Assembly: GCA_023406895.1 (NCBI GenBank)
Contig: JAEXTV010000016.1
Location: 64,663-128,662, forward strand
Direction of reading: 5' to 3'
DNA length: 64,000 nucleotides
Source of the DNA: Bacillota bacterium
GTDB lineage: Bacteria > Bacillota > Clostridia > Christensenellales > SZUA-584
Part shown: positions 4,307 to 38,663 of the stretch, piece by piece
Numbering within the stretch: position 1 is the first letter of the stretch
Layout: the number at the start of each line of letters is the position of its first letter
Translations under genes and position numbers: made by a program
Notes under the pieces: generated by a model
Told to the model about the DNA's origin: nothing
What the model saw: only the letters and a program-made list of their open reading frames with translations
Database searches by the model: none

Positions 4307-6655
4307 CTACAGATGCCATATCTCCTGCGCATACTGCCTCACCGTCCTGTCAGACGAGAACTTTCCGGCCGACGCCACATTGGCAAGGCCCTTGCGCCCG
4401 AAGCTGAGCCTGTCCGCATAATCGCAGTTCACACGCAGCTTGGCTTCCACATACGGCATCAAATCGAGCAGCAGGAAGTAATGATCCGCCCGGTGCCAGC
4501 AGGCCCCCTCGAGTAACGCATCATACAGCTCCTTGAAGTAACCGAAACCGTCGTCGCTGAGTGTGCCGTCTATCAGCGTATCGAGCACGCGCTTCACCCT
4601 CGGGTTGCTCTCATAAATCGCTTTGGGGTTGTAGCTTGCGCTTTCGCGCCGGATGTCTTCCACGCGCGCCCCGAATATGTAGTTGTTGTCCTCACCGGCC
4701 TCTTCCACAATCTCCACGTTCGCGCCGTCGTACGTGCCAAGCGTGACCGCGCCGCTCAGCATCAGCTTCATGTTGCCTGTGCCGCTCGCCTCGGTGCCCG
4801 CGGTCGATATCTGCTCGGAAACATCCGCCGCCGGAATAATCGCCTCGGCATACGAGCAGTTGTAGTTCTGCACAAACACGACACGCAGCTTATCGTTCGT
4901 TTGCGGGTCTGTGTTGACGAGCCGCGCAATCTCATTGATCAGCTTGATAATCGCCTTGGCCCGAAAATATCCCGGGGCCGCCTTCGCGCCGAAAATAAAC
5001 ACCGTCGGATGAAAATCTTGAAGGCTGCCATCTTTGAGGCCGTAATAGATATCGAGTATCGACAGCGCGTTGAGCAGCTGGCGTTTGTATTCGTGCAGCC
5101 GCTTCACCTGCACATCGAATATGAATTCGGGCGGGATTTCCGTGTCCTCACGCTCGGCAATCAGCGCGGCGAGCTGCCGCTTTTTTTGCTGCTTCACGGC
5201 GTTAAAGCGATGCACAAAATCATCGTCTATGCTGTCTTTGAGCTTCCCAAGCTGACTTAAGTCAGTCAGAAAACCGCTGCCAATACGGCTTTCGATCAAC
5301 GCCGTGAGCTCCGGGTTGCAGAGCCCGAGCCAGCGCCGCTGCGTCACGCCGTTGGTCTTGTTCTGAAATTTATCCGGATACAGCTCATACCAGTTTTTAA
5401 ACACATCGTGCTTCAAAATCTCGGTATGCAGCCGGGCCACGCCGTTCACATACGTTGACATAAACACCGCGAGCCGCGCCATATGCACCGTGTCGCAGTC
5501 GATTATGCGCATGCTTCCCGTCTTTTCCGCAGGAACCCCCGCCTCACCGAGCACCGCGCAAAGCTTTTCGTCAATCCGCGTGATGATCGCTCTGATCTCC
5601 GGGATCACGGCGTCCATCAGCGCCACGTGCCATGTTTCGAGCGCCTCGCCCATCACGGTATGGTTCGTATACGAAAACGTCCGCTGCGCCATTGCAAATG
5701 CGTCGTCAAAACTGAATCCCTCAGCCATCAGCAGCCGCATCAGCTCGGGCACGCAGATCACCGGGTGCGTATCATTAAGCTGAATCGCGCAGTGCGCCGC
5801 GAATCCCGAAAGATCGCTGCCGTGTGTGCGCTTGTACCGCGCGATGATATCCTGCAGCGACGCACTCGCGAGAAAATACTGCTGCTTGAGGCGCAGCTTT
5901 TTGCCCGCGTCGTCACAGTCGTTCGGGTACAGCACGCGCGAGATATCCTCCGCGTCGTTCTTCTCCCGCACGGCCTGGGCGTAATCCTGATTGTTGAAAG
6001 CGGTAAAATCGAGTTCCTGCACCGCCTCGCTCTGCCACAGCCGCAGCGTGCCCACATGGCCGCTTTGGTAACCGATCACGGGCATGTCGTACGGCACCGC
6101 GCGAACGGTCTGATCCGCGAATGTCACCGTCACCGCCCTGTCGTCGCGGCGGCAGCTCCACGGGTCGCCGTCCGTCTGCCAATCGTCGGCGGTTTCGCAC
6201 TGCATGCCGTCGACAAACAGCTGTTTAAAAAGCCCGAACTTGTAGCGGATGCCGTAACCGTCGAGCGGCAGCGCCATCGTCGCCGCACTGTCTAAGAAAC
6301 ACGCCGCGAGACGGCCCAGCCCGCCGTTGCCGAGCGCCGCGTCCTCAATGTCTTCCAGTGCGGCTAAATCCGCGCCGCGCTCCCGCAGCTTTTCGCGCAC
6401 CTCACCCAGCACACCGAGGCAATAGAGGTTGTTAAACACCATCCGTCCGATTAAGAACTCAATAGAAAAATAATAGGCGCGCCGCGCCGTGCTATGTTTA
6501 TTTTTGCTGATGATCCAGTCGTCTGATATCAATGCCATCACGGCCTTCGAGAGCGCGTCGTGCAGCTGAGCCGCACTTGCGCTTTTCATATCCTTCTGGT
6601 AACTGCTTTTTAGGTTTTGTTCCGTCATGCGCAATATCTGGTTGCTGTCGGTCAT
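4307..6655 (-). CDS. glgP: Glycogen/maltodextrin phosphorylase
   Basis: 782 aa with the PLP-lysine motif EASGTGNMKLMLSGAVTLGTYDGANVE and a typical GT35 N-terminus. ATGA overlap with malQ. Confidence 0.95.
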   Translation of the reverse strand: MTDSNQILRMTEQNLKSSYQKDMKSASAAQLHDALSKAVMALISDDWIISKNKHSTARRAYYFSIEFLIGRMVFNNLYCLGVLGEVREKLRERGADLAALEDIEDAALGNGGLGRLAACFLDSAATMALPLDGYGIRYKFGLFKQLFVDGMQCETADDWQTDGDPWSCRRDDRAVTVTFADQTVRAVPYDMPVIGYQSGHVGTLRLWQSEAVQELDFTAFNNQDYAQAVREKNDAEDISRVLYPNDCDDAGKKLRLKQQYFLASASLQDIIARYKRTHGSDLSGFAAHCAIQLNDTHPVICVPELMRLLMAEGFSFDDAFAMAQRTFSYTNHTVMGEALETWHVALMDAVIPEIRAIITRIDEKLCAVLGEAGVPAEKTGSMRIIDCDTVHMARLAVFMSTYVNGVARLHTEILKHDVFKNWYELYPDKFQNKTNGVTQRRWLGLCNPELTALIESRIGSGFLTDLSQLGKLKDSIDDDFVHRFNAVKQQKKRQLAALIAEREDTEIPPEFIFDVQVKRLHEYKRQLLNALSILDIYYGLKDGSLQDFHPTVFIFGAKAAPGYFRAKAIIKLINEIARLVNTDPQTNDKLRVVFVQNYNCSYAEAIIPAADVSEQISTAGTEASGTGNMKLMLSGAVTLGTYDGANVEIVEEAGEDNNYIFGARVEDIRRESASYNPKAIYESNPRVKRVLDTLIDGTLSDDGFGYFKELYDALLEGACWHRADHYFLLLDLMPYVEAKLRVNCDYADRLSFGRKGLANVASAGKFSSDRTVRQYAQEIWHL

Positions 6656-36317: not shown

Positions 36318-36823
36318 AATACGTCTCTCCTGTGATGCAAATTACATCTGTGATCATACACCTATGCATCGGATAGGGAAAGCTTATTATCGAAAAGATC
36401 TTCTAAGTGAAAACCTATTTCATCGACAGAATGAAAGGGAGTTTATATAAGCTGATATTGACGTAAAAGAATTTAGATCATTCAATACTTATTTATCTCT
36501 TAACTGATCGTACAAGCGTATAGTTGAGCCTATTGCTCTTTCAGTCCACCGTTTTTGATTTTCTCTCCCACAGACTCCGAATCGGTGACAGCCCTCAATT
36601 CACCCTAATAAGGCAGTCGTCAGAAAAGCCCGCTGTAAGAGGGCTTTATTCCATTTTCATATGGATGGCGCTGATTGAATGAGGCGGGATGATTTATTTC
36701 ATTGAACCGGGGTTCGTAGGGGATGCCACCGCAGGAATCGCCGCGCTGTTATAAGGCTTTTGCGCCTCAGCAGCGTGCAAAATCGGCCGTCAAGACAGCG
36801 AATCGACTTAATCAGAACTGACT

Positions 36824-36990
36824 GAAAAAGAAAAACGGCGCATGCTGCGCCGCTTCGAGCTTCCCCGTATCCGGGGCGTGGTTAGGAGGTCAGTCTAAAC
36901 TTTGTAGGTATCTGAGCGCCATTGCTGCAGGCGTTTATAAGCTGCGTTTCCTCTGAGACCTTTCTTCACCGCTCCACCGTTTGCCATTGA
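36824..36990 (-). ncRNA. Candidate small RNA or cis-regulatory leader (promoter plus terminator unit, class unknown)
   Basis: On the minus strand: TTGCGT (37023-37018), a 17-nt spacer, GATAAT (37000-36995), then about 165 nt ending in CGGCGCA-tgc-TGCGCCG plus TTTTTCTTTTT (36852-36824). It has an internal hairpin CCCCG-gata-CGGGG and no SD-preceded ORF. Confidence 0.25.
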
Positions 36991-37057
36991 TTTTATTATC
37001 CATAACCCCGGAGCAAAACGCAAACGCCGTCCATGCACAAAAAATAAAGGAAACCAC

Positions 37058-37092
37058 AGAAAAAAGAAGCGTCGTGGATTTGTTACGCTTCT
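37058..37092 (-). terminator. Rho-independent terminator downstream of the UDG genes
   Basis: On the minus strand: AGAAGCGT-aacaaatccacg-ACGCTTCT followed by TTTTTCTG. Confidence 0.65.
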
Positions 37093-37276
37093 ATGACTTT
37101 TTTAATATTTTTGTAACATGTCCCATTTTTGCTGTTCAGATCTGCTTTTGTGTACAATTAACCGGAATATGAACGGTTTCCTTTACTAAAGCGATCTATC
37201 CTTCTTGATAGATATCGCCTTTGCGTATTGACTCGTTTAAGCTTTTAAGGTTATTAACTTATTAGTGTCACCGATT

Positions 37277-37879
37277 TCATTTGAGTGTGGGCTTAATCCC
37301 AAGCGCATCCAAAAAGCTCCGGAGCTTTTTTAAGTCCTCATCGTAAACGGCTTTGAGCGCCCTGTTGTAAATGATGCTCGCCGGATGGTAGAGCGGAAAC
37401 AGCATAAACCGGTGCGACAGCGCGTGCGCAGTCACAGGCATGGCATGGCTGCCGCCGATTGTCGCACCGCTGCCATGCAGCGCCTTTAACGGCACGTTTC
37501 CGAGTGTCACCACCACGCGCGGTGAGATCGCCTCAATCTCGCGCAGCAGCAGCGGCGTCATCGCGGCAAGCTCATCCTTTTCAGGAGGACGATTGGAGAG
37601 CGTCCCTTTTTCGCTCTGCTTGTACGGCCTGAATTTAACCACGTTCGATATATAGATGTCCTCCCGGCGCAGCTTCAGCGCAAGTAGAAACTCATCGAGA
37701 TTCTTGCCCGCTTTGCCCACGAACGGGCGCAGCAGCCGCGTTTCCTCGGCACCCGGCGCTTCGCCGATCAGCATCACGGCGGCGTTCTCGTCGCCTTCCC
37801 CATAAACAAGATCCTTTTCGGTTCTGTGAAAAGCGCGGGCGGCTTTCAGCACGTCGGCATAGATGCTGTCAAGCTTCAT
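37277..37879 (-). CDS. Family-4-like uracil-DNA glycosylase superfamily protein lacking all cysteines
   Basis: I moved the start to MKLDSIYADV, which follows AGGGGA. Motifs GEGDENAAVMLIGEAPGAEE..RPFVGKAGKNL and HPASIIYN. It has no Cys anywhere, and an extra loop FRPYKQSEKGTLSNRPPEKDE sits where canonical family 4 has CRPPxNR. Confidence 0.75.
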   Translation of the reverse strand: MKLDSIYADVLKAARAFHRTEKDLVYGEGDENAAVMLIGEAPGAEETRLLRPFVGKAGKNLDEFLLALKLRREDIYISNVVKFRPYKQSEKGTLSNRPPEKDELAAMTPLLLREIEAISPRVVVTLGNVPLKALHGSGATIGGSHAMPVTAHALSHRFMLFPLYHPASIIYNRALKAVYDEDLKKLRSFLDALGIKPTLK

Positions 37880-38430
37880 TGTTGTCCCCTGTCTCATTGT
37901 ATTTTTGCTTTATGGCCAGCAGGTCTTTGTACGCGTCCTTTTTCAGCTGCTCGTTTCGAAGCAGCGCGGCCGGATGGTACGTGGCCATGATTGAAAATCC
38001 CTTTACCTCGTGCCACACCCCGCGGTCTCTCATAATGCGAACGTCCTGATTGAGTATATATTTCGCCGAAATGCGCCCGAGGCACACGATGATCTTGGGC
38101 TTGATCAGTGCCACCTGCCCGCGCAGATACCCGATGCACGCGGCCGCTTCCTCCGGCTCGGGGTCCCGGGCGACACTTTAGCACATTCGCGATGTACACA
38201 TCGTTGCGCGTGAGCGCAATGCTGCCGAGCATTTTGTCGAGCAGTTGCCCCGCGCGCCCCACAAACGGACGCCCAAGATCATTCTCATCGCGCCCCGGTC
38301 CTTCGCCGATAAACATGATGCGCGCGTGACAATTGCCCTCGCCGAACACCGTGTGTGTGCGGGTTTTGCATAGGCCGCATTTTTGGCATGCCGCCACTTC
38401 ATTCATGATTTGTATAAGGCTTGTATACAT
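37869..38430 (-). pseudogene. Canonical family-4 (Fe-S) uracil-DNA glycosylase interrupted by a frameshift near 38161-38172
   Basis: ORF 37894..38430 is UDG4-like up to CQKCGLC..GEGNCHARIMFIGEGPGRDEN..VYIANVLKCRP. The rest, RDPEPEEAAACIGYLRGQVALIKPKIIVCLG..ATYHPAALLRN, continues in another frame (ORF 37869..38114). The junction is at TGTCGCCCGGGACCCCGAG. Confidence 0.7.
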
Positions 38431-38663
38431 GGTATGATTATATCAAAGTGGCCCGTCTATCTCAAGACGAGGGATGGCCGGCCCAATTGTCATCATGTGG
38501 TTTCGAAATTAAATCTATCCAAAAAACGTAATTTTTTTGGGATTTTTTTGATACGGGTATGCTTTTTATCGATAATCGTTTATAATATATAAAAGTGACA
38601 TTGACATTTTTACATCCTTTGGTGTTATTCGTGGTGGAATGATTTTCGAAAGGTGACTTCGTA

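Follow-up and report, generated by a model that had tools for sequence, protein, structure and literature searches.

The pair of uracil-DNA glycosylase (UDG) genes described here is probably a conserved clostridial cassette whose first gene (gene A) was lost recently and whose second gene (gene B) encodes a conventional UDG without an Fe-S cluster. Both genes lie on the minus strand of the window, by which we mean the complete analysed stretch of 64,000 nucleotides. Gene A (37869 to 38430) was recognised from two reading frames and by comparison with orthologues as a pseudogene of a canonical [4Fe-4S] family-4 UDG (UDGa). Gene B (37277 to 37879) is an intact, cluster-free paralogue of family-4 type with 200 amino acids, identified with the Pfam UDG and TIGR00758 models. 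No further family-4 homologue was found in the 64-kb window. The pair is flanked by cdaA and cdaR, which diverge from it on one side, and by folD on the other. Textbooks present family-4 UDGs as DNA repair enzymes with a [4Fe-4S] cluster; what this cluster does is still debated.

The matches of both genes to the Pfam UDG family (PF03167) are far beyond chance; the E-value for gene B is 2e-30. Gene B passes the cut-off of the family-4 model TIGR00758 (UDG_fam4) by a narrow margin (134.3 bits, cut-off 125.3), and two other B-type representatives, P0123 and P0130, reach 144 and 134 bits. Its score with the UdgX model TIGR03914 is 93.7 bits, well below the cut-off of 189.95. The protein aligns end-to-end with the UDGa enzymes of Sulfolobus tokodaii, Thermotoga maritima and Thermus thermophilus, with a single 8-residue gap after K-F-R-P. 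All family-4 motif residues that were looked for are present: motif A, G39-E-A-P-G43 (37751 to 37765, minus strand), E46, F53, N79, K82, N96 and H165, the leaving-group-stabilising histidine of motif B (H165-P-A-S, 37376 to 37387, minus strand). For the cluster we looked for a CxxC near the N-terminus, a KCRP and a further cysteine about 16 residues later; the residues aligned with these four ligands are A, A, F and M, and gene B contains no cysteine at all. F83, at the position of the third ligand, and the 8-residue insertion FRPYKQSEKGTLS occupy 37595 to 37633 (minus strand) and are followed by the invariant N96-R97-P-P99, so that residues 83-99 read FRPYKQSEKGTLSNRPP. A preliminary description of this DNA had noted the GEAPG and HPA(S/A) motifs (the latter within YHPAS, residues 164-168), the lack of cysteines, a loop inserted where the Fe-S ligand loop normally sits, and an 11-nt overlap with gene A. 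All of this was confirmed; the loop lies between the third and fourth ligand positions, at the site of the R-loop of UdgX, and the overlap is that of the gene B ATG (37879) with the original stop codon of gene A (37871-37869). As to whether gene B belongs to a UDG family that has already been characterised, its family-4 score places it in one, while the subclade that it represents is distinct and we found no characterisation of it. Database records label such proteins “uracil-DNA glycosylase family 4” or, for some homologues in JGI, “DNA polymerase”.

When one genome per species was scanned, a B-type gene turned up in at least 590 species. Among the best 80 of these species loci, an A orthologue was found directly upstream of B on the same strand in 59, each time as a single unbroken tblastn segment. 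In about 47 of the 59 tandems, A overlaps the start of B by 4-44 nt, the B starts having been picked by a script and thus being approximate. B occurs without an adjacent A in 21 of the 80 loci; in Caloramator australicus and Fonticella tunisiensis, A and B are 635-678 nt apart. The tandem is found in Christensenellales, Oscillospiraceae, Faecalibacterium-labelled metagenome-assembled genomes (MAGs), Caloramator, Fonticella and other Clostridia. Over the best 80 loci, A and B move away from their window counterparts at the same pace, both starting at about 90% identity and both ending at about 55%. An intact A upstream of B in most loci and a similar divergence of the two genes argue against a replacement in progress, so that the functional replacement of one gene by the other, which had initially been suggested as a possible meaning of the pair, is not supported. 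The A-B pair is instead an old conserved cassette of Clostridia, ancestral and not transitional.

The two genes are conserved each in its own way. In 60 of 60 A orthologues the ligands C15, C18, C86 and C102 are present, as are GEGPG, N82, N91 and H156. Among 81 B orthologues none has a cysteine at position 83 and five have one at position 107, while GEAPG, F53, N79, K82, N96, R97, H165, P166 and A167 are found in all 81; R84, P85 and P99 are invariant too, G92 is present in 80 and S95 in 78. E46 is invariant in an alignment of 39 B sequences. Of the former ligand sites in B orthologues, position 17 is aromatic (70/81), position 83 is hydrophobic, and position 107 is Met or Phe (64/81).

An AlphaFold2 model of gene B has a mean pLDDT of 82.3, which falls below 50 at residues 47-55, including the stacking phenylalanine, and is about 72 over the insertion. 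The latter is modelled as a beta-hairpin with strands 86-88 and 94-96. In a Foldseek search of the PDB, the model matches UdgX best, followed by family-4 UDGs from three species (S. tokodaii, T. thermophilus and T. maritima); the S. tokodaii enzyme is essentially equal to UdgX (E ~1e-14). In the T. thermophilus enzyme, residues E47, F54, N80, N89 and H155 have catalytic or pocket roles (PMC5387724; PMC9796141), and N89 was proposed to position the attacking water (PMC5387724). E47, F54, N80 and H155 correspond to E46, F53, N79 and H165 of gene B (PMC5387724), and N89 corresponds to N96. With the pocket and catalytic residues kept, and an asparagine in the place of the crosslinking histidine of UdgX, gene B most likely encodes a uracil-specific glycosylase that works by ordinary hydrolysis, needs no cofactor and does not crosslink. 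Two published observations support this reading. Cys-to-Ser mutants of archaeal family-4 enzymes lost only about 40% of their activity (PMC5295032), and the UdgX variants H109S, H109G, H109A and especially H109S/Q53A act as conventional turnover UDGs (PMC10359453); gene B has Ala at the position of Q53 and no His at that of H109.

We read the locus as a cassette in which an orthodox [4Fe-4S] family-4 UDG, encoded by A, is followed by a cluster-free paralogue, B, whose four ligand cysteines have given way to Ala, aromatic or hydrophobic residues and which carries an 8-residue predicted beta-hairpin between ligand positions 3 and 4. In gene B, N79 would read the N3/O4 edge of uracil, F53 would stack on the base, E46 would exclude thymine, H165 would stabilise the leaving group and N96 would position the attacking water. 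The family-4 cluster is thought to stabilise a loop that is anchored by two of its cysteines (PMC5295032). The hairpin of gene B, with its conserved Lys and Gly, may buttress or extend this same DNA-contacting loop. In the window lineage, an 11-bp deletion between CCG repeats has recently inactivated gene A and left gene B untouched; B alone would now supply the family-4 activity of the locus.

The long-term retention of both genes in tandem suggests that gene B is not simply redundant with A, and substrate or context may differ between them. A stronger version of this idea, which we regard as rather unlikely, is that the substrate range of gene B has changed (to hypoxanthine, xanthine or 5-hydroxymethyluracil, or to a strict selectivity for single strands or mismatches) and that A and B are complementary. 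Complementary substrates would account for the retention of both genes, that is, for the tandem in 59 of the 80 species loci and the similar divergence of its members. It would also fit the much lower score of gene B than of gene A against canonical UDGa (102 vs 162 bits), the position of the insertion in the loop adjoining the catalytic Asn, and the altered properties of DR0022-like relatives within family 4 (PMC9796141). However, all residues that form the tight uracil pocket of the T. thermophilus enzyme, including E46, are invariant in B orthologues (PMC5387724), which speaks against a changed range.

In about 47 of the 59 tandems the stop codon of A overlaps the start of B, and this could also be taken as a sign that A and B form a physical pair, either a heteromer or a hand-off arrangement produced in equal amounts through translational coupling, with B as an accessory subunit. 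A physical pair appears improbable in view of the 21 of 80 loci in which B has no adjacent A, of the complete set of catalytic residues in gene B, and of the purifying selection under which gene B remains after the loss of gene A (see below). We know of no heteromeric UDG.

Gene A begins with an ATG at 38430 and reads MYTSLIQIMNEVAACQKCGLC...ANVLKCRPG, after which the family-4 frame is left and translation continues to a stop at 37894; from another ATG, at 38406, the protein would begin with MNEV.... The N-terminal extension MYTSLIQIM aligns in most orthologues. As it stands, the open reading frame (38430-37894) encodes 178 amino acids, of which the native sequence, with the motifs CQKC, GEGPG and NVLKCRPG, ends at KCRP; about 90 unrelated residues lie between the frame break and the stop. 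The remainder of the gene, RDPEPEEAAACIGYL...ATYHPAALLRN...NNEA, continues in another frame up to the original stop that ends at 37869, which puts the fourth ligand, C102, as well as motif B outside the frame of KCRP. A full-length gene A frame with all motifs and the four cysteine ligands is thus absent from the window; the intact orthologue in the related contig L001 has 182 amino acids.

The cause of the break can be read from a DNA alignment with three related contigs. L001, L003 and L004 have GTGCCGC-CCGCCGGGCAA-CCGGGACCCC, whereas the window has GTGTCGC-CCGGGACCCC, which is an exact 11-nt deletion of CCGCCGGGCAA. Bases 38169 and 38170 meet at the junction (38167 to 38172, minus strand), which has a CCG repeat of 3 nt on its flanks; the bases past the gap are CCGGGAC in the window as well as in the relatives. 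With these 11 nt, the P-P-G-N codons after KCRP, including that of the water-positioning Asn, were lost and the frame was shifted. When the four lost codons are restored, gene A matches Pfam UDG (PF03167) with an E-value of 8.5e-40, TIGR00758 with 211.3 bits (cut-off 125.3) and the T. thermophilus UDGa (PDB 1ui0) with an E-value of 1.2e-46; with TIGR03914 it reaches 140.3 bits, below the cut-off of 189.95. These results support the view that gene A encoded a canonical Fe-S enzyme of family 4 until a small deletion at a microhomology inactivated it. The preliminary description was thus right in taking gene A for a frame-broken Fe-S family-4 UDG with CxxC and KCRP, and right about a slipped deletion; its coordinates need correction, as the 19-mer across the frame change lies at 38157-38175, and so does its repeat, which is CCG (3 nt) and not CCGG.

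In its shifted frame, gene A ends in a TGA (37896-37894, minus strand) that overlaps an in-frame ATG (37897) upstream of gene B to form ATGA. This ATG is a possible alternative start of gene B, giving MRQGTTMKLD.... The ATGA at 37894-37897 is probably coincidental; relatives have the same string in another frame.

Gene A data come from metagenome assemblies, and in principle gene A could be functional, the frameshift being either programmed or an error of sequencing or assembly. We consider this very improbable. The identical 11-nt gap is present in an ENA scaffold of 646 kb (L087), in the NCBI MAG GCA_023413795.1 (L088) and in a Logan assembly of SRR13400328 (L089), which were built by different pipelines from samples that may overlap and possibly belong to one study. 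These are the three that were compared for the gap out of eight public contigs with the exact gene B protein. Gene callers produced the same 170-aa frameshift product in these records. An identical gap in three differently built records indicates a real allele of gene A and makes an assembler artefact unlikely, which disposes of the assembly error that had to be considered when the break was first noticed. A loss of 11 nt is also atypical of homopolymer-type sequencing errors. Programmed frameshifting was ruled out on other grounds: four codons, including that of the catalytic Asn, are gone as well, and a product of ribosomal frameshifting would still be without PPGN.

The closest population with a different allele is represented by L001, L003 and L005, in which gene B is 97% identical and gene A is intact with 182 amino acids, and relatives with a gene B of 77-97% identity have an intact gene A. 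We polarised the substitutions on the window branch with L004 as the outgroup. Gene A has accumulated 8 synonymous and 3 non-synonymous changes on this branch, with no further stops or indels, and gene B 15 synonymous and 4 non-synonymous changes. A gene that is otherwise undamaged and in which synonymous changes dominate points to a young pseudogene. The loss of gene A is recent and restricted to the window lineage, and gene B is still under purifying selection after it. A long-standing pseudogene was ruled out by the lack of other lesions and the excess of synonymous changes. The break in gene A is an ordinary recent pseudogenisation and of local interest only.

Upstream of gene A we found a promoter-like sequence, TTGAGA-17 nt-TATAAT with an extended TG (38437 to 38465, minus strand), which is a consensus match with 11 of 12 positions. 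It ends 6 nt before the gene A ATG, so that the A-B transcript may be leaderless. The A-B unit may end at an intrinsic terminator, GAAGCG...CGCTTC with a T6 run behind it (37060 to 37091, minus strand), which forms a hairpin in the predicted fold and whose sequence is kept in L001 and L004; a pattern scan for terminators omits it, which we attribute to its long loop. Between gene B and an ORF for a membrane protein of 102 amino acids there is a non-coding block at about 36830-37125 (minus strand) that is also present in L001 (about 4420-4730) and L004. It has a hairpin with T6 at its start and a strong terminator hairpin (36832-36856) at its end; its conservation among window, L001 and L004 is above that of the flanking genes, and its indels are not multiples of three. 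The block may be an unannotated small RNA; it has no match among Rfam families, and the z-score of its folding energy is -0.44. In the same intergenic region, about 190 nt at about 36440-36640, including the GC-rich hairpin GCCCTCTTACAGCGGGC, are present in the window and missing from L001 and L004. Directly upstream of folD lies a ZMP/ZTP riboswitch (RF01750; 35875-35956, minus strand; 58.5 bits, gathering score 39, E = 3e-8). This is a usual association for that riboswitch.

To place gene B within family 4, an exhaustive profile-free search was made against 1.84 billion representatives. It returned 67 clusters (50% identity) at E <=1e-30 and 8480 at <=1e-10. We classified those of the 150 best representatives that had full coverage (138), a sample that is biased towards the neighbours of gene B. 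The loop is present in 71 cluster-free representatives, in 12 with one or two stray cysteines and in 12 with all four; it is absent from 20 with all four cysteines (the canonical form), 14 with one or two stray cysteines and 9 that are cluster-free. Nearly all of the 138 keep the catalytic Asn, Glu and His; four have Asp or Ser in the Asn column, and one of these also has Asn in the His column. In a neighbour-joining tree of 136 sequences (a simple method, with the sequences reclassified by slightly different rules, loop columns removed and UdgX not included), the sequences that have the loop and no cluster come together in an almost pure clade (77/79), whose nearest outgroups are loop-bearing Fe-S forms. 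Groupings of this kind were obtained again in 54 and 59 of 60 bootstrap resamples. The position of these outgroups suggests that the loop came first, in an ancestor with an Fe-S cluster, and that cluster loss followed. The idea that the hairpin merely compensates for cluster loss is weakened by the 12 Fe-S representatives with a similar loop and by 9 to 17 cluster-free ones without it. Gene B belongs to a coherent and diverse cluster-free subfamily of family 4, which forms a distinct subclade.

Several members of the wider group deserve mention. The loop-bearing branch includes proteins much longer than 200 amino acids, namely P0145 (586 aa), P0122 (370 aa) and P0267 (827 aa), which presumably are fusions with further domains; in P0267 the full set of four cysteines is combined with a loop of 17 residues. 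Cluster-free family-4-like UDGs with RSRP for KCRP and a 22-residue loop at the same site were found in L085 (235-885) and L086 (250-891). These GenBank records are named Enterococcus phage Efs 1-1-1 and Listeria phage LM 4-11-1 (UNVERIFIED_ORG), and we suspect that both contigs are host DNA rather than phage.

Full-text literature searches gave us no study, whether biochemical or structural, that deals with a family-4 UDG without a cluster or with the A-B tandem; an earlier mention of the clade is possible. Family 4 is described as consisting of Fe-S enzymes and the loop of UdgX as unique (PMC8307549, PMC10359453). The gene B clade is of interest as a large natural group that has dispensed with the cluster, kept the catalytic apparatus and gained a predicted hairpin at the site of UdgX crosslinking. 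As such it is a natural experiment on the role of the cluster, on that of the inter-ligand loop in uracil recognition, and on how the chemistry of UdgX may have evolved. The tandem with an Fe-S paralogue in many Clostridia of the gut and of anaerobic digesters, together with its occasional loss, bears on cofactor economy in anaerobes. Cofactor-free family-4 enzymes could also be easier to produce as reagents.

Among known systems, the family-4 enzymes of T. thermophilus (1ui0), T. maritima (1l9g/1vk2) and S. tokodaii (4zbx) have the same fold as gene B and share with it motif A (GE[A/G]PG), motif 3 (N..K and the Asn of NR.P) and motif B (HPA/S); HPASIIYN of gene B resembles HPAAALYN of the S. 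tokodaii enzyme. Unlike them, gene B is without all four [4Fe-4S] ligands and has the 8-residue insertion between ligand positions 3 and 4. Gene A is orthodox in these respects, but broken in the window genome.

The UDG-like N-terminal domains of phage family-A DNA polymerases (SPO1/N4 type) are, like gene B, of family-4 type. Gene B has weak matches to PHROG 17 and PDB 9qhs. Its polymerase-fused phage matches (e.g. Bacillus phage Shanette) have an identity of <=36% and align over a shorter length than gene B, and we read them as lacking the insertion. In contrast to these domains, gene B is chromosomal and stands alone, and the housekeeping neighbourhood in which it lies is conserved. PADLOC gave no defence-system match for gene A or B, anti-phage glycosylases such as Brig1 included. 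A defence or phage origin was rejected on the basis of this result, the low phage identity, the weak PHROGs match and the housekeeping neighbours.

Clusterless MutY (MutYX) is another glycosylase lineage in which the [4Fe-4S] cluster was lost, in this case more than once (PMC12631127). The relatives of gene B likewise include cluster-free forms, both with and without the loop. This is an analogy only, as MutYX belongs to the helix-hairpin-helix superfamily, whose fold is unrelated, and acts on another substrate.

A further comparison is with UdgX of Mycobacterium smegmatis (6ail, 6ajo and the 8ii* series), whose R-loop (KRRIH) lies at the insertion site of gene B. The loop between the motif-3 Lys and NR.P or HK.P is nearly equal in length (13 residues in gene B, 14 in UdgX), and the two align with a single-residue gap that puts N96 on the nucleophile His109. 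That gene B is a UdgX-like protein which uses its inserted loop to crosslink or tightly bind DNA, as this match in site and length, the top Foldseek rank of UdgX structures and an early hint at altered or covalent chemistry might suggest, is hardly credible given Asn96 for His109, GEAPG for GEQPG, the missing Fe-S cluster, a TIGR03914 score of 93.7 bits whose ratio to the family-4 score is as in canonical enzymes, and a family-4 structure (4zby) that is about equal in Foldseek. UdgX membership was therefore rejected on the TIGR03914 score, Asn96 and GEAPG. As a conventional hydrolytic UDG, gene B is predicted not to form a covalent SDS-stable complex with DNA, and it resembles the engineered “reverted” UdgX H109S/Q53A, a turnover UDG (PMC10359453).

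A more distant kinship is another matter. The ratio of the UdgX-model score to the family-4-model score is about 0.70-0.74 for B-type proteins, 0.62-0.70 for canonical enzymes and 0.70-0.89 for Fe-S forms with the loop, and a specific kinship of gene B and the other loop-bearing forms with UdgX is possible. In its widest form, the proposal would be that the insertion of the loop-bearing branch of family 4, i.e. of the Fe-S forms with the loop and the large cluster-free clade containing gene B, and the R-loop of UdgX go back to a common ancestor, and at the same time that the A-B cassette is a set of two non-redundant UDGs. Taken jointly, these two statements are doubtful, and we put them forward tentatively. 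If they were true, the R-loop would not be unique to UdgX, and the loop-bearing proteins, with Asn for His109, would be the natural hydrolytic counterparts and the source of the crosslinking enzyme. The co-translated A-B pair would then combine an Fe-S-dependent and an Fe-S-independent UDG and give anaerobes a built-in cofactor-independent backup.
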